Below, piece after piece: positions 931 to 9,570 of a stretch of 64,000 nucleotides of DNA. The number at the start of each line of letters is the position of its first letter. Positions within the stretch are counted from its first letter, which is position 1. The notes under the pieces were generated by a model that was given only the letters and a program-made list of their open reading frames with translations, was not told where the DNA came from and ran no database searches. The position numbers and the translations under genes are program-made. Source of the stretch: Candidatus Eiseniibacteriota bacterium (GTDB lineage Bacteria > Orphanbacterota > Orphanbacteria > Orphanbacterales > Orphanbacteraceae); contig JBDROZ010000042.1 of assembly GCA_043809585.1 (NCBI GenBank), forward strand, positions 1 to 64,000, written 5' to 3'.

Positions 931-1223
931 GTCATCTCCCGTCCATCGAAAAGTGTAGCCCCAGGGATCGGGGGCGACAAGAGAAAGGGCCGGCTTCGCC
1001 AAACGGGCAGGACCCATGCCGGCCCTCGCGGGATCATCGGCAATCAGAGAAAACATTATATATTCTCTACGGTGCATATGTATAATTGGTTATGATGGCG
1101 TCGATTAGTCGCCCTGGATTCGATCCTCTCCCCGCCCGTCTCCGCCGGGTCCTTCATCCGTCCGAGGACGAAGCGGGCCGTCCCTGCAGCCAGCCGCAGC
1201 AGGAAGGGGTTTTGAAACGAGTT

Positions 1224-3347
<2,124 letters not shown>

Positions 3348-3567
3348 CGGACCTCGCGGAATTCGGTGGTTGCGGACATGGCCCTCCGGAGCCTCGCGGG
3401 CGGGAGGGAAAGCGGCGCTACTCCTGTAAATGTATGTAAAATCACCGTCCCCCGGTTTACAATCGAGAGCGGCGCCGCTGGAGCGCCGGAGTCCTTGATG
3501 TTAAGGGAGTTACGGCCCGCGGGCAACCCTTTTCGGGAGCGCCGGGCCTTTTCGTCCGGGAGACGAC

Positions 3568-4467
3568 GTGACCCTCGCCCGATTCCGAACCGCCGGGCCC
3601 CTGGCGCTGATCTTCCTCATCGGCGCGTTCGCGCTTTTCCGGGGGGGAGCCGGCGGACCGCGCCCCTCGGACATCGACACGGCCGGCCCGCTCCGCATCC
3701 TCTCCCTCTCGCCGAACCTGACGGAAATCCTCTTCGCCCTCGGCCTCGGCGACCGGGTCGTCGGCGTGACCGACTACTGCCGGTTTCCGCCCGAGGCGCG
3801 GGAGAAGCCGAAGGTCGGCGCCCTCCTCAACCCGAGCCTCGAGAGGATGTTCGCCTTGGAGCCGAACCTGATCGTCCTCTTGCCCGCCCACGGAGGCATC
3901 GGCGACCGGATGGCGGCCCGGGGCCTTCGGACTCTCATCCTGCCGAACGACACGGTGGGCGACATCTTCGCCTCCATCGATTCGATCGGCCGCGCCACGG
4001 GATCCGAAGAAGCCGCGAGGGTACTCGCCGATTCGCTCCGGAACGCCCTCGGCGAGGTAACCGCCGATCCGCCGGACCGGGTGCGCCGCGTGATGATCGT
4101 CGTCTCCCGCACGGAGGGAAGCGTGAAGGACGTCTTCGTCGCGGGGCCGGGCACTTACCTCGACGAGCTTCTCCGCCGCGCGGGGGGTGAGAATGTCTTC
4201 GGCCGGTCCGCCGCCCGTTACCCCGAGCCGAGCGTCGAGGAGATCCTCCACAAGAATCCGGAGGTGATCCTCGAGATCCGGCCCGAGGGGGACGGTGCCG
4301 CCGCGGAGACCCGCCTCGCCCGGGGGACGTGGGGAACGCTGCCGGGACTCGCCGCCGTGGAGAGGGGGAACGTTTTCGTCCTCACCGGGGACCATCTCGT
4401 CGTGCCGGGGCCGCGCATGGGAGAGACCCTCCGGGACATCGCCGCCGCCCTCCGGGAGGCCCGCTGA
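3568..4467 (+). CDS. ABC transporter substrate-binding protein, BtuF/helical-backbone type (cobalamin or iron complex)
   Basis: RILSLSPNLTEILFALGLGDRVVGVTDYC motif, PGPR near C-terminus, N-terminal hydrophobic leader. Confidence 0.85.
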   Translation: MTLARFRTAGPLALIFLIGAFALFRGGAGGPRPSDIDTAGPLRILSLSPNLTEILFALGLGDRVVGVTDYCRFPPEAREKPKVGALLNPSLERMFALEPNLIVLLPAHGGIGDRMAARGLRTLILPNDTVGDIFASIDSIGRATGSEEAARVLADSLRNALGEVTADPPDRVRRVMIVVSRTEGSVKDVFVAGPGTYLDELLRRAGGENVFGRSAARYPEPSVEEILHKNPEVILEIRPEGDGAAAETRLARGTWGTLPGLAAVERGNVFVLTGDHLVVPGPRMGETLRDIAAALREAR

Positions 4468-5258: not shown

Positions 5259-6244
5259 ACAAGAAGAATCCGCTCCGCCTTCTCCTCCTCTTCACGTTCC
5301 TCTTCGTGATCGTGCTCCTCGGAGCCCCTTTCTTCGGTCCCGAGCCGATCGCGCCGGGGGACATCTTCGGCGAGTCGGGGACGACCCGGTTCTTCATCTT
5401 CTGGAGCCTCCGGGTGCCGCGGCTCGTCCTCGGGCTCCTTGCCGGCGCGAGCCTCTCCCTCGCGGGGCTGACGTTCCAATCTCTCTTCCGGAACCCGCTC
5501 GCCACGCCCTTCACGCTCGGCGTCTCGTCGGGGGCGGCCTTCGGCGCGGCCCTCGCGGTGATGGTCGGCGTCCGGGGGCTCGTCTTCGGGATGGACGCGG
5601 TGGCGTTCTGGGCCCTCGCGGGGGCGCTCCTCGTGGTGCTCGTGCTCTTCCGTCTCGGGCGGCGGGGACGGGGGCTCTCGACGCTCCATCTCCTGCTCGC
5701 GGGGGTGGCGATCTCCTACTTCTTCTCGTCCCTCCTTCTCTTCCTCCAGTACACGGCCGACTTCACGGAGACTTTCCGGGTGGTCCGCTGGTTGATGGGG
5801 CGGCTCGAGTCGATCGGGTTCGCTTCCTCCTTCACGATCCTGCCGGCGTTCCTGGTCGGAGTGGCGATGCTCTTCTATTACCGGCGGGAGCTGGATCTCC
5901 TGCTGACGGGGGAGGAGATCGCCCGGAGCCGGGGGGTGCCGGTCGACCGGGTGCGGGCGCACCTCTATCTGGTGGCGTCGTTCCTGACGGCGACGACCGT
6001 CGCCGCGTGCGGGCCCATCGGGTTCGTCGGGCTCGTGGTTCCCCACGTGCTCCGGCTCCTCCTCGGGCTCTCTCACGGCTACCTGATCGCCGGGTGCGTT
6101 CTCATCGGCGGGCCCTTCCTGGTCGTGTGCGACGGCATCGCCCGGAACCTGCTGACCGAAACGGAACTGCCGGTCGGCATCATCACGGCGCTCCTCGGCG
6201 GACCGTTCTTCCTCTGGCTGGTGGTGAGGAAGCGGGGGGAGTAG
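5255..6244 (+). CDS. FecCD/BtuC family permease
   Basis: LRVPRL, QSLFRNPLATPFTLGVSSGA, GPIGFVGLVVPH, LPVGIITALLGGPFF. Confidence 0.9.
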   Translation: MNKKNPLRLLLLFTFLFVIVLLGAPFFGPEPIAPGDIFGESGTTRFFIFWSLRVPRLVLGLLAGASLSLAGLTFQSLFRNPLATPFTLGVSSGAAFGAALAVMVGVRGLVFGMDAVAFWALAGALLVVLVLFRLGRRGRGLSTLHLLLAGVAISYFFSSLLLFLQYTADFTETFRVVRWLMGRLESIGFASSFTILPAFLVGVAMLFYYRRELDLLLTGEEIARSRGVPVDRVRAHLYLVASFLTATTVAACGPIGFVGLVVPHVLRLLLGLSHGYLIAGCVLIGGPFLVVCDGIARNLLTETELPVGIITALLGGPFFLWLVVRKRGE

Positions 6245-6427
6245 GGGGGGCGGCTCCCCGCCGGAGAGGACCGCGAGTATTTCGGGCTCTTTGCCTGAAT
6301 TCGGCGTCCGCCATATTGATTTTCTTCCCGCTTATTCATATCTCTTCGGCCGGCGTTGATAAAGATCCGGCAATTCGCCGGGAGAGCGGAATCCCCCCAG
6401 GCGGTTCCCCACCACGGAGGCCATCCA

Positions 6428-7141
6428 ATGTCGATGGTGAAAACTCGGTCGTCGAGGTTCTTGGCGGTCTTTCTCTTTCTGGGCGGTCTTCTGATGGCCC
6501 TGGGCGCCGTTACGGCGTCGGCGACGGAGGTGGTCGTCCTTCGGAGCGGAAACGCCCCCGCGGGGAATCCCGATCCGTCCATCACGATGCTCGTGGGTTC
6601 CGGCGGCGCCCCCCTGTCGCCCAACCTGTTCACTACGGCCGACTTCGACTCGGCGTGCACCGGCCCGAACGCCATGATCGCGCTGCAGCCGATCTCGGTC
6701 TGGGCCCAGCAGCTCGCGTGCGATCCCCTGGCCCAGTGGATCGGAATCGATGCGTTCAACACCCCCGCATCGGTGCTGTTCTGCCAACCCTTCGACCTCC
6801 AGACCTGCTGCATCGACCATGCGACGCTGACGTTCTGCTGGGTGGTCGATGACGGTCTCGGCGACTACCCCGGCGCCGGCGGTCCCAACACGGACGGCGT
6901 CTACCTGAACGGCGTCGCCGTCACTCCGAGCATTTCCGGCGGCAACTACGCGACCGAAACGACCATGGTGGCGGACGTCACCGGTCTCGTCCAATGCGGC
7001 GCGAACCGGCTCGAGGTCTACAACCGGGACCTCGGCTTCGCCGTCAGCGGCGTGATGTACAGTGCGACGATCGAGGTGGAAGGCTGCCCGACTTCCACGG
7101 AGCATTCGACCTGGGGCTCCATCAAGTCGATGTACCGCTAG
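6428..7141 (+). CDS. Secreted Cys-rich protein, probable jelly-roll/lectin-like domain, with C-terminal TWGSIKSMYR motif
   Basis: GGAGG RBS; signal peptide ending ASA; DD...VYLNG...GANRL pattern; C-terminal motif shared with 31344-33014. Confidence 0.7.
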   Translation: MSMVKTRSSRFLAVFLFLGGLLMALGAVTASATEVVVLRSGNAPAGNPDPSITMLVGSGGAPLSPNLFTTADFDSACTGPNAMIALQPISVWAQQLACDPLAQWIGIDAFNTPASVLFCQPFDLQTCCIDHATLTFCWVVDDGLGDYPGAGGPNTDGVYLNGVAVTPSISGGNYATETTMVADVTGLVQCGANRLEVYNRDLGFAVSGVMYSATIEVEGCPTSTEHSTWGSIKSMYR

Positions 7142-7147
7142 TTCTCT

Positions 7148-7187
7148 CGGGGCCGCGGGGCGACGTGCTCCGCGGCCCCGCTCTTTC
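7148..7187 (+). terminator. Probable intrinsic terminator
   Basis: CGGGGCCGCGGGGC-GACGT-GCTCCGCGGCCCCG hairpin followed by CTCTTTC, just after the stop codon. Confidence 0.55.
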
Positions 7188-7339
7188 ACCGCCCGCCACC
7201 GTCGATCTCCGATCCTCCTGATTTTCCTTGCCAGCGCACCCTCTTTTCCCATTCATTGAGAGCGGCAAGCCATCTGTTTCTCGCGAGTCGTCGGCCGATG
7301 CCGGACGGATCCCGCTTCCGGCCTACCAAGGAGAGTGCC

Positions 7340-7891
7340 ATGCGAAGAGCGTCCCCCCTGCCGTGGATCTTCCTCCTTCTCGCCGCGGCGCTTCTCGCGC
7401 CGGACGGGGCGGAGGCGAACGGCCTCCTGCCCGGCCAGTACACCTTCCGCGTCATGTGGGACGGGAAGGAGATGGCCGGGATCGACCGGGTCTCCGGCCT
7501 CGTGCGGCGGACCGAGGTGGTCCGGCCCCGGAGCGGCGGAGGGCCGAGCGGCGTCATGAACACGGTCGGGATCACCGCCCACGAGCCGCTCATCATCGAA
7601 CGCCGCCTGTCGCAGGACAAGGAGTTCGAGCGGTGGGCGAACAAGGTGTGGATGTACGGGGCCGGATTCGGGTCGGAGATGTCCCTCGGTGACTACCGGA
7701 AGGACCTCAAGATCGACCTCTACGACCACCAGGGGAAGCTCGCCATCTCGTACCGCGTTTACAACTGCTGGCCATCCGAGTATTTCGTGCTCGGCGAACT
7801 CGACGCGTCGGGGCCGTCCCTCCCCGTGGAGGTCCTCGTCATCGCCTACGAGGGCTTCGAGCGGGACTGGTCGGTCGTCCCGTCTCCTTAG
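7340..7891 (+). CDS. Phage/eCIS tail-tube (gp19/Afp1-5-like) protein with N-terminal signal peptide, paralog 1
   Basis: YTFRVMWDG, VSGLVRRTEVV, FERWANKVW, SLGDYRKDLKIDLY, NCWPSEY, EGFERD; leader MRRASPLPWIFLLLAAALLAPDGAEA; AAGGAG RBS. Confidence 0.85.
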   Translation: MRRASPLPWIFLLLAAALLAPDGAEANGLLPGQYTFRVMWDGKEMAGIDRVSGLVRRTEVVRPRSGGGPSGVMNTVGITAHEPLIIERRLSQDKEFERWANKVWMYGAGFGSEMSLGDYRKDLKIDLYDHQGKLAISYRVYNCWPSEYFVLGELDASGPSLPVEVLVIAYEGFERDWSVVPSP

Positions 7892-7976
7892 CGCCGGAAA
7901 GAGCGACGCCATGCGTGTTCGCATTCTCGATTGGAAATCACCAAGCCAACGGGCCCACTCCCCGAGGAGGTTCGCC

Positions 7977-8564
7977 ATGCGTTTCCGAACGGCCGTGCTC
8001 GGTTTCGTCGCCCTCGCGGCGCTCGTCGCGTCCTACGCCGCCGCGAACGAGTTCTCCGTCAACGTTCACCGCCACGACCCGTACAAGCGGTACAAGTTCC
8101 GCGTGAAGTGGGACGGCAAGTACGTCCCCGGCGTCATGTTCGTCAGCGGCCTGACGCGGACCACCGAAGTCGCCACCTACCGCAAGGGGAACGAGGCGAG
8201 CGGCATGACCCACACGCCGGGACCGACGACCTACGCGCCGATCATCCTCGAGCGGGGGCGGACCCACGACGACGCCTTCGAGACCTGGGTGAACAAGGTG
8301 TGGAACTTCGGCGCCGGGCTCGGCTCCGAGTCCTCGCTCGCCGATTACCGAAAGGACATCATGATCGAGCTCTACAACGAGGCGGGGCAGCTCGCGATGG
8401 CGTGGAAGGTGTACAACTGCTGGCCGTCGAAATACAGCGCCGTGACCGAATTCGACGCGGCGAGCCCGGACCTCGCCATCGAGTCGCTCACCCTCGAGCA
8501 TGACGGTTGGGAGCGGGACACGGCGGTCGCCGAGCCGACGGAGCCGACGTACACGACACCTTGA
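7977..8564 (+). CDS. Phage/eCIS tail-tube (gp19/Afp1-5-like) protein with N-terminal signal peptide, paralog 2
   Basis: FSVN..RHDPYKRYKFRVKWDG, ILERGRTHD, WVNKVWNFGAGLG, RKDIMIELYNEAGQ, CWPSKY, LEHDGWERD; leader MRFRTAVLGFVALAALVASYAAA; GAGGAGG RBS. Confidence 0.9.
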   Translation: MRFRTAVLGFVALAALVASYAAANEFSVNVHRHDPYKRYKFRVKWDGKYVPGVMFVSGLTRTTEVATYRKGNEASGMTHTPGPTTYAPIILERGRTHDDAFETWVNKVWNFGAGLGSESSLADYRKDIMIELYNEAGQLAMAWKVYNCWPSKYSAVTEFDAASPDLAIESLTLEHDGWERDTAVAEPTEPTYTTP

Positions 8565-8592
8565 GGTCTCAAGGGAAAGCCGGCGGGACGAT

Positions 8593-8752
8593 GGACCGGC
8601 ATCGGGAGGGGGCGGGGCATAGCCGGGGAGTTCTTGATGGCTTCCGCAACGCTGCCTCTGCGCGTCCGGAGAATGGGAGGGCTTTCTCCCGCCGCACGAC
8701 GAGCGTCCACGTCCGCCCCATCCCCCTCCCTCCTCCGATCCTCCGCCCCGCC
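8593..8752 (+). repeat. Dispersed ~160-bp intergenic repeat, family A
   Basis: Reverse-complement homologs at 42908-43070, 43157-43275, 59339-59500 and partial 20783-20856. Confidence 0.8.
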
Positions 8753-8814
8753 CGAAGAAGAGGAGGCGGAGTCAGCGGAGTAGGCGGCGCTCTGCCCCGC
8801 CTATGTATTGAAAT

Positions 8815-8869
8815 GTCATCCCCGCGAAGCCTGCCCCCGCGAAGGCGGGGGGCGGGGATCCAGGAAATC
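8815..8869 (+). repeat. REP-like palindrome GTCATCCCCGCG...GGGGATCCAG
   Basis: Nested hairpin; reverse-complement copy at 42799-42854. Confidence 0.75.
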
Positions 8870-8913
8870 TGATTCCGTTGGGCGGGATCCCTACCCGAAC
8901 CTCACCGAGTAGA

Positions 8914-9570
8914 TCAGCGGAAGGAGGGGCGGACGCCCAGGGCCGGACGGGGCGCCTCGTAGCCGAACCGTTCGCAGTCTCCGGCGCATGATCGGTAGAC
9001 CGCGCGGAGCCGGGTGGCATCGTAATGGTCCCGCCACGGCTTGTGCCGGGTGGCCGCCTCGCGGCCGAGGGGCACGGGCCGAAGGCCGATGCGGCGGCAC
9101 ACTTCGTCGAAGTCCTCTTGAAGCCGCTCGAAACGCCCGACGAAGTCGACGAGAACGTTCCCGGCCCCGTCGCCGAGCATCCACGACTGGTAGTCCCGAT
9201 CGAGGATCACCTCGCCCCGGACGATGCCGTCCAGGAAAGCCTCGAAATTCGGATAGGCCGTCCAGTCCCGTTTCCGCCACGGCACGTCCGGATCCGCCTG
9301 CTCGTGCATGCACCACTCCGAGAGAAGCCGGTCGAAGGGGTTCCGGACGAAGCCGAACGTGAAGTACCCGTCCCAGATCTCGTCGGCGACGATCTCCTTC
9401 AGCCGCGACGCGGCGATGTGCTTGCAGTTCTCGCCCGGCAGCACCTCGTCGGAGAGCCACGTCTCGTCGAAGCGGAGGCCGAGGAGAGGGGCGAGGGTCT
9501 TTTCGATCGACGTGCCCCCCGTCTTCCCCGGATGAACGAAGATCACCTTGTGGGTGTGGGAGAGAATCAT
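8914..9570 (-). CDS. Sulfotransferase family 2 protein
   Basis: MILSHTHKVIFVHPGKTGGTSI (5'-PSB loop), FVRNPFDRLLS (3'-PB), DFVGRFERLQEDF. Confidence 0.85.
   Translation of the reverse strand: MILSHTHKVIFVHPGKTGGTSIEKTLAPLLGLRFDETWLSDEVLPGENCKHIAASRLKEIVADEIWDGYFTFGFVRNPFDRLLSEWCMHEQADPDVPWRKRDWTAYPNFEAFLDGIVRGEVILDRDYQSWMLGDGAGNVLVDFVGRFERLQEDFDEVCRRIGLRPVPLGREAATRHKPWRDHYDATRLRAVYRSCAGDCERFGYEAPRPALGVRPSFR

Follow-up and report, generated by a model that had tools for sequence, protein, structure and literature searches.

What would a bacterium do with two tail-tube proteins that appear to be made for export, when no sheath or baseplate is found to go with them? The question is raised by two tandem genes, here called tube1 (gene 1) and tube2 (gene 2), in a 64,000-nucleotide stretch of the genome of a Candidatus Eiseniibacteriota bacterium (positions 1 to 64,000 of contig JBDROZ010000042.1, assembly GCA_043809585.1), referred to below as the window. 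In all tail tubes described to our knowledge, whether of phages, tailocins, extracellular contractile injection systems (eCIS) or, as Hcp, of type VI secretion systems (T6SS), folding and assembly take place in the cytoplasm, and a sheath and a baseplate are required. A preliminary description, made from the letters of the window, had singled out the pair as orphan tube genes with signal peptides of the general secretory (Sec) pathway. From the follow-up reported here, and judged by sequence, the pair is best described as exported tail-tube paralogues that are independent of a contractile injection system (CIS). The two genes and their parts are laid out as follows.

7328-7333, forward strand: Shine-Dalgarno sequence AAGGAG of tube1, six bases 5' of the ATG (direct sequence reading)
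7340-7891, forward strand: tube1 gene, 183 aa
7340-7417, forward strand: tube1 leader MRRASPLPWIFLLLAAALLAPDGAEA, residues 1-26 (from the translation; orthologues have a leader of the same type; putative cleavage point at its end)
7418-7891, forward strand: predicted mature tube1 domain, residues 27-183 plus stop codon (PF06841, TIGR02241, AlphaFold2 model, Foldseek)
7964-7970, forward strand: Shine-Dalgarno sequence GAGGAGG of tube2, six bases 5' of the ATG (direct sequence reading)
7977-8564, forward strand: tube2 gene, 195 aa
7977-8045, forward strand: tube2 leader MRFRTAVLGFVALAALVASYAAA, residues 1-23 (from the translation; position statistics of 95 homologues; helix 2-22 in the AlphaFold2 model)
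8046-8564, forward strand: predicted mature tube2 domain, residues 24-195 plus stop codon (PF06841, TIGR02241, Protein Data Bank sequence matches, Foldseek)

Two tandem open reading frames (ORFs), each with a strong ribosome-binding site, were thus correctly read, and the assignment to the gp19/Afp tube family, made at first from motifs, is borne out by searches with hidden Markov models (HMMs). Against PF06841 (Phage_T4_gp19; cut-off 28.2 bits), tube1 reaches 102 bits (E 2.9e-29) over model positions 3-134 of 134 and tube2 135.7 bits (E 1.1e-39) over positions 2-134 of 134, and both exceed the TIGR02241 cut-off of 62.4 bits (84.8 for tube1, 136.5 for tube2). The tube motifs that had been quoted are present, the one written as EG[WF]ERD taking the form YEGFERD in tube1 and HDGWERD in tube2. 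Neither protein reaches the NCBIfam equivalog cut-offs for CIS1 (220; tube2 53.7 bits, tube1 19.4) or CIS5 (260; tube2 59.5, tube1 41.1). Sequence matches of tube2 in the Protein Data Bank are the inner tubes of AlgoCIS (7adz), of the Anabaena thylakoid CIS (7b5h), Afp1 and Pvc1; PHROGs places both proteins in its tail tube category, and none of the PADLOC model families matches either of them. The two are 51% identical to each other, tube1 being the divergent, faster-evolving paralogue that lacks the N-terminal EFSVN..R.DPYK arm, and they are exactly the two PF06841 matches in the host genome.

A tail-tube beta-sandwich fold is predicted for both proteins by AlphaFold2 (AF2), with a predicted local distance difference test score (pLDDT) of 80.3 for tube2 and 73.1 for tube1; residues 2-22 of the tube2 model form a helix and residues 23-38 are of low confidence. 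The best Foldseek matches of both models are all CIS or phage tube chains, namely 7adz_1a and 7b5h_AN for tube2 (template modelling score normalized by target 0.78-0.82, E down to 1.2e-10) and 7b5h_AM and the Pvc5 chain 6j0n_n for tube1 (E down to 8.8e-08). A complex prediction of mature tube2 with mature tube1, run without controls, scored 0.25 against a mark of 0.32, and a search of the ESM Atlas returned ordinary 'phage tail protein' clusters only.

Leaders and predicted export

In tube1, the N-terminus MRRASPLPWIFLLLAAALLAPDGAEA, followed by N, runs from a basic n-region through a hydrophobic core to AEA, directly ahead of the predicted cleavage point, and that of tube2, MRFRTAVLGFVALAALVASYAAA, likewise followed by N, places A-A-A at positions -3 to -1. 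Downstream of the two ATGs and ahead of the tube domains, just one further in-frame start codon occurs, the GTG that forms codon 7 of tube2; since it lies inside the leader, neither leader can be removed by the use of another start, just as had been stated at the outset.

That these N-termini are a conserved trait and no quirk of one genome can be read from the homologues of tube2, of which at least 7998 among the 8000 candidates scored had E <= 0.001. The best 120 are of two kinds, one of about 198 aa with a basic-hydrophobic-AxA N-terminus and one of about 174 aa that is leaderless, and in the 230 homologues that are full-length, the N-terminal extensions have a bimodal length distribution (1 residue in 69, 26 residues in 56). 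The leaderless kind starts with M-[AP]-[QE]-F-[ST]-V-N, which aligns with N24-E-F-S-V-N of tube2, so that mature tube2 is predicted to start exactly where leaderless CIS tubes do, as the preliminary description had stated.

Aligning 95 leader-bearing sequences on the start of the domain brought out the same basic-hydrophobic-AxA architecture across the whole set. Basic residues fall at -25 to -23, lysine or arginine occupying positions -24 and -23 in 52-55%; charged residues make up no more than 1% at -17 to -6, and mean hydropathy is 2.0-3.2 over -17 to -8. Position -3 is A, V, S, T, I or G in 89/95 and position -1 is A, S or G in 90/95, while the consensus at +1 to +6, A-E-F-T-V-N, equals the residues that follow the Met in leaderless forms. 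The leader measures 25-27 residues in 83/95, with a hydrophobic core of about 10-12 residues. A motif like that of twin-arginine translocation (Tat) signals, of the [ST]RRxFL type, occurs in 2/95 and a lipobox pattern in 5/95, the common residues at +1 being A, T, S and Q and never Cys; by these patterns the leaders would be neither Tat nor lipoprotein signals. The leaders of tube1 and tube2 instead fit the pattern of Sec export with processing by signal peptidase I. Predicted export of both proteins is therefore well supported, and from the same statistics we infer that the leaders are cleaved. Relatives retain the leader and the gp19 fold is present in the models, two points that had been left to be checked. 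The host genome has nine matches to the Omp85 family; the host is therefore a diderm with an outer membrane, and Sec export would bring the tube proteins to the periplasm.

Five homologous proteins (P0160, P0177, P0178, P0219 and P0225) have a signal peptide, then a low-complexity linker of 20-60 residues and then the tube domain, which suggests tethered or spaced tube variants. Apparent leaders at three further loci (L111, L058 and L070) were rejected as hydrophobic-looking non-coding read-through upstream of the gene; at L111 the protein starts with MAQFSVN and the locus has a sheath.

The N-terminus could also be conceived as a signal anchor that remains uncleaved and tethers the tube domain on the outer face of the inner membrane. 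The AF2 model, in which a 21-residue helix is followed by a flexible linker, would be in line with such an arrangement, as would the 20-60-residue linkers between hydrophobic segment and domain in P0160, P0177 and P0219. Yet the small residues at -3 and -1 are kept in the 89 and 90 of 95 sequences counted above, and a core of only about 10-12 residues within a leader whose length is fixed at 25-27 in 83/95 is a feature of cleaved signal peptides, which makes the anchor, to our mind, highly improbable. Cleaved Sec leaders are thus the reading carried forward here.

A cassette with no detectable contractile partners

We examined 21 loci with leader-bearing tubes: the window, four relatives, five genome contigs, four metagenome loci and seven from a second phylum. 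The tube2 leader is present in 21/21. A complete tube1-tube2 pair, in constant order and often with only a few bases between the genes, was found in 16 of them, and every tube1 of these complete pairs has its own leader. A single leader-bearing gene occurs in one clade (L022, L023, L099) and in L188, and at L116 tube1 is cut by the end of the contig. No gene family besides the tubes recurs across the 21 loci, and the cassette sits among housekeeping genes that vary from locus to locus. The pair is found in 6/10 genomes of the window's phylum, and the phylum labels among the cassette genomes include Eisenbacteria, KSB1 and Latescibacterota; in G133 and G134 it lies on contigs of 3.6 and 6.5 Mb. 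Judging from these sequences, the pair is a widespread, conserved two-gene cassette of several candidate phyla, not a one-off.

In the single-gene clade (L022 2820-3539, L023 1003-1647, L099 400-1119; no tube1), the leader begins MKKLRVALAGVVVICCFAV and ends, after further residues, in ADS ahead of TPF. The stretch just 5' of the start codon is conserved between records with different phylum labels, and there are tRNA genes in the vicinity. An Rfam search of the pair region and of the three single-gene loci found only these nearby tRNAs and no regulatory RNA.

The loci of leaderless relatives show what such genes look like as part of a contractile system. Leaderless CIS tubes that stand beside sheath genes are 57-64% identical to tube2. 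Scanning species-representative genomes with tube2 gave 75 loci, six of them leader-bearing (L019-L023 and L082, the last being on the same contig as one relative's locus) and 69 leaderless or cut at the N-terminus. Directly upstream of the leaderless tubes there is usually a gene for 500-670 aa, confirmed as Phage_sheath_1/1C in two examples, and downstream follow Pvc16_N, an AAA ATPase with a winged-helix domain and eCIS_core proteins. Custom HMMs for sheath, cap, ATPase and eCIS_core were built from these neighbours, the sheath HMM from 43 sheaths. In the 69 leaderless loci they matched a sheath in 53, a cap in 38, an ATPase in 35 and eCIS_core in 26; in the 12 leader-bearing locus entries none of the four matched at all. 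A metagenome scan, for which the tube1 alignment was used with peptide patterns that proved not to be specific for tube1, yielded 80 loci; five were leader-bearing, with a CIS gene in 0/5.

The absence extends beyond the loci. The host genome, a metagenome-assembled genome (MAG) of 123 contigs that total 4.24 Mb, with a completeness of 97.5%, has no match to sheath models (PF04984 Phage_sheath_1, PF17482 Phage_sheath_1C and the custom HMM) and none to Baseplate_J, gp25, Phage_GPD or VipB/TssC, the Baseplate_J, gp25 and GPD searches being confined to this genome. In its six-frame ORFs the custom sheath, Pvc16-type cap and eCIS_core HMMs likewise found nothing, and the custom AAA ATPase HMM gave two generic matches only (60 and 28 bits). 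Of the parts by which a CIS is recognized (a sheath; a baseplate with a spike; a cap with an AAA ATPase), none was found in the host genome apart from these two generic ATPase matches. Phage_sheath_1 was found in 0/5 pair-bearing relatives and Pvc16_N (PF14065) in 0/12 other leader-bearing genomes, whereas the control, genomes with the leaderless form, had Pvc16_N in 4/5. The survey of relatives that had been proposed earlier, for leader-bearing gp19 homologues that co-occur with a sheath, found Sheath_1C in 0/17 leader-bearing genomes.

The sharpest contrast comes from the G042 phylum, tested over 167 genomes, 24 of which have sheath_1C. Here, sheath_1C and Pvc16_N were found in 0/9 leader-bearing genomes, and both in 7/7 genomes with a leaderless close homologue (5/5 with sheath and cap when the unpublished G207 and G211 are left out). 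Three genomes with distant tube matches only have CIS genes, and G136, whose tube match is truncated, was left unclassed.

These searches widen one statement of the preliminary description and narrow another. It had found no other tail genes in the 64 kb, which now holds across the whole genome for sheath, baseplate, spike and cap, including the absence of a sheath/baseplate locus encoded elsewhere; tape-measure, capsid and lysis genes were not specifically searched for. It had also called the pair an orphan. This stands insofar as sheath, baseplate, cap and spike are missing from the genome, but the pair is neither a one-off nor special in being an orphan within its locus: for leaderless tube genes at L097, L119, L147 and L160, the roughly 10 kb to each side hold no CIS gene, their neighbours being XseA, aldehyde dehydrogenase with URO-D, ThiC and an HlyD-type protein. 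Since such leaderless loci exist, standing alone within the locus is not peculiar to leader-bearing tubes, and orphan tube genes with cytoplasmic products seem to exist as well.

It is conceivable that the pair does not truly stand alone and that a highly divergent sheath or baseplate, or some other machine, is encoded elsewhere. The genomes in question are MAGs, strongly diverged families escape HMM searches, and an ORF at 6422-7141, upstream of the pair, encodes an exported protein of unknown family (see below). The same searches nevertheless detected sheath and cap in 7/7 genomes with leaderless homologues, only the tubes recur across the 21 loci, and the 6422-7141 gene is absent from the orthologous loci of relatives. 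We consider such hidden partners the least probable of the alternatives weighed here, and return to a pair that would work independently of a CIS.

Descent and proposed assembly

Trees were built on the tube domain with the leader removed, and on them the leader trait clusters strongly. FastTree united 88 leader-bearing, 3 leaderless and 5 unclear rows in one clade (support 87), one of the three leaderless rows, P0026, being a miscalled start, and left 28 further leader-bearing rows outside of it. In a quick IQ-TREE run on 114 rows, the leader trait required 14 changes, compared with a mean of 33.8 upon shuffling, and 0/500 shuffles were as low; the tube1 orthologues formed one clade inside the leader-rich half, within the Cis1-like lineage. 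Because resolution is poor, neither a single nor multiple gains of the leader can be read from these trees. When 100 leader-bearing and 103 leaderless domains were compared column by column, a single column was conserved in just one of the groups, and group-specific fixed residues were seen in none. The exported tubes are therefore constrained almost as true tubes are, and from these shared constraints we infer that they still form rings and stacks.

Taken together, the evidence is best explained by a cassette that would descend from an eCIS inner-tube protein of the Cis1 type and would have gained Sec-type signal peptides. The precursors would cross the inner membrane unfolded via Sec, signal peptidase I would cut both leaders, and the mature proteins would fold in the periplasm, where hexameric rings probably still form and may stack into a short sheathless tube. 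In this assembly tube2 would be the main subunit, and tube1, lacking the N-terminal arm and leaning weakly towards the Cis5 adaptor, may be a minor partner that nucleates or caps; the assembly could serve as a scaffold in the envelope, as a conduit or as a carrier. As one joint proposition, from descent through export and cleavage to a periplasmic sheathless ring or tube made mainly of tube2, we hold this explanation to be moderately probable. The more ambitious version, in which the cassette builds a new, non-contractile envelope structure, i.e., a Sec-exported, self-assembling sheathless tube or filament in the periplasm or at the surface, is put forward tentatively and is on balance doubtful. 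As the preliminary description suggested, the pair may polymerize into a filament in the periplasm or outside the cell and may have a conduit or cargo role.

Several points weigh against this explanation. Cleavage and localization are deduced from statistics over sequences. Known tubes polymerize on a baseplate hub, and their length is set by a tape measure; neither hub nor tape measure was found in the host genome (the latter was not specifically searched for), so that polymerization may be uncontrolled or may not take place. The adaptor role of tube1 relies on weak scores far below the NCBIfam cut-offs, and the tree places tube1 within the Cis1-like lineage. The trees themselves are poorly resolved, with 6/111 branches starred in IQ-TREE. 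Finally, the genomes are MAGs, that of the host in 123 contigs, and the absence of a gene from them is not proof.

The second of these points leads to a further possibility, namely that the proteins are exported yet do not polymerize and instead act as single hexameric rings or heteromers, as a periplasmic chaperone or carrier for small proteins or ligands. The evidence for export and fold fits this equally well, the lack of a nucleating hub or tape measure in the genome counts against long ordered tubes, and Hcp rings act as effector chaperones in known systems. What argues against it is that the constraints on the domain are nearly identical to those on CIS tubes that polymerize, and that no conserved cargo gene lies beside the pair in the 21 loci. 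We therefore regard free rings as rather unlikely, and keep the stacking, sheathless assembly as the preferred explanation.

Its relation to known systems can be specified. With Cis1 proteins (Alg1 of AlgoCIS, 7adz; All3324 of the Anabaena thylakoid CIS, 7b5h; Afp1; Pvc1) the pair shares the Pfam and TIGRFAM family and the fold, and the mature N-terminus and C-terminal tail of tube2 are the same. It differs from them in its Sec leaders, in the lack of sheath, baseplate, cap and ATPase in locus or genome (as to the ATPase, apart from the two generic AAA matches) and in the second leader-bearing paralogue that accompanies tube2 in 16/21 loci, single-gene loci also occurring. Like the Cis5/Afp5/Pvc5 adaptor, tube1 is a minor divergent paralogue encoded beside the main tube; its CIS5_fam score (41 bits) is higher than that for CIS1_fam (19 bits), and its top structural matches are 7b5h_AM and Pvc5. 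Unlike the adaptor, it falls short of the 260-bit cut-off, is by sequence a duplicate within the Cis1-like lineage and has a Sec leader. The hexameric, stacking rings of T6SS Hcp and phage T4 gp19 are built on the same tube fold at a greater distance (Foldseek ranks 16-50); these proteins are cytoplasmic, without signal peptide and dependent on a sheath, and TssC (VipB) was not found in the host genome. The subunits of curli and chaperone-usher pili have cleaved leaders, pass the inner membrane unfolded and polymerize outside the cytoplasm, and the major subunit is typically encoded beside a minor nucleator. With these the pair can be compared in mode of working only, as there is no relationship in sequence or fold and no usher, chaperone or secretion-pore gene beside the cassette.

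A search of the full-text literature turned up no description of Sec leaders on tail-tube or Hcp-like proteins, though the supplementary tables of eCIS surveys may list such genes. In the available portions of PMC12210884 and PMC10598620, 'signal peptide' denotes the tag for loading eCIS cargo, and tube proteins with Sec leaders are not mentioned.

From a lineage of Sec-leader tubes conserved across phyla, in genomes that have no other tail part, it would follow that the tube module is able to serve alone and on the other side of a membrane. The more ambitious version, if true, would add a class of bacterial nanostructure not seen before and would be the earliest known example of a component of phage tails put to use beyond the cytoplasm. 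The pair raises the questions of whether the tube fold can refold and polymerize after Sec transport, of what nucleates a tube and sets its length without hub and tape measure, and of what use a protein tube with a 4-nm bore is in a bacterial envelope. For engineering, the cassette could provide a simple two-gene, secretable, self-assembling nanotube. Public records that name homologues label them 'phage tail protein', an annotation that wrongly implies a prophage.

Neighbouring genes

In the window, genes of a Peripla_BP_2/ABC/FecCD transporter lie upstream of the pair, and genes for a glycosyltransferase, a sulfotransferase and a response regulator lie downstream. The same FecCD transporter flanks the pair in one other genus, and at L015 the gap between the FecCD permease and tube1 is only about 240 bases. 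Neighbours at other leader-bearing loci encode secreted S8 and C25 peptidases, FtsX, GNAT, PNPOx and an esterase.

These neighbourhoods bear on the idea of a defence decoy, in which incoming contractile tails (of myophages, tailocins, eCIS or T6SS), once past the outer membrane, would have their exposed tips capped, extended or jammed by tube subunits in the periplasm. The predicted location is where foreign tubes arrive, the 57-64% identity to functional CIS tubes has been kept, and CIS-bearing genomes are common in the same phylum (the 24/167 with sheath_1C). The surroundings, however, are of a housekeeping kind and not defence islands; the partial synteny across genera of the family, with the same FecCD transporter alongside in two of them, suggests that the pair has long been inherited vertically; PADLOC gave no match, and no precedent for the mechanism is known to us. 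A decoy thus strikes us as quite unlikely, and a cassette for a periplasmic sheathless assembly remains our preferred explanation.

Large secreted peptidases of the C25 gingipain-like or S8 subtilase type adjoin the pair at two loci (L017, 6057-9854, reverse strand; L019, 1768-5715, forward strand). Both carry a C-terminal domain of the FlgD_ig or Por_Secre_tail type, and their adjacency may be due to chance. A promoter and terminator scan of positions 6200-9000 of the window gave nothing above the shuffled expectation. A search of sequencing runs listed three DNA runs, all from one study and with shares of 0.05-0.14, and no RNA run.

Between the FecCD transporter and the pair lies the ORF mentioned above (6422-7141, forward strand), which encodes a Cys-rich protein of 239 aa. 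Its N-terminus is a Sec-like leader, and searches of Pfam, NCBIfam, PADLOC and PHROGs gave no match to it. As a partner of the tubes it was rejected, tblastn finding no match to it in the loci of five relatives. Further upstream, ahead of the transporter, an open frame of 1034 aa (1086-4187, forward strand) has no Pfam match; it overlaps long frames on the opposite strand, and the real gene there may be another one.

A final observation concerns the host proteome as a whole. A shared C-terminal tag of approximately the form [PT][ST]T[EQ]xx[ST]WG.[VI]K.[LM][FY]R, directly followed by the stop codon, ends 57 ORFs of at least 100 aa in the host genome, where about 0.06 C-terminal matches are expected by chance, and the same pattern occurs internally only 4 times in about 5 million positions. 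In the window it is carried by the 6422-7141 ORF and by a 560-aa ORF on the reverse strand, and is absent from tube1 and tube2. From its distribution, the tag looks like a proteome-wide sorting signal without a transmembrane helix.

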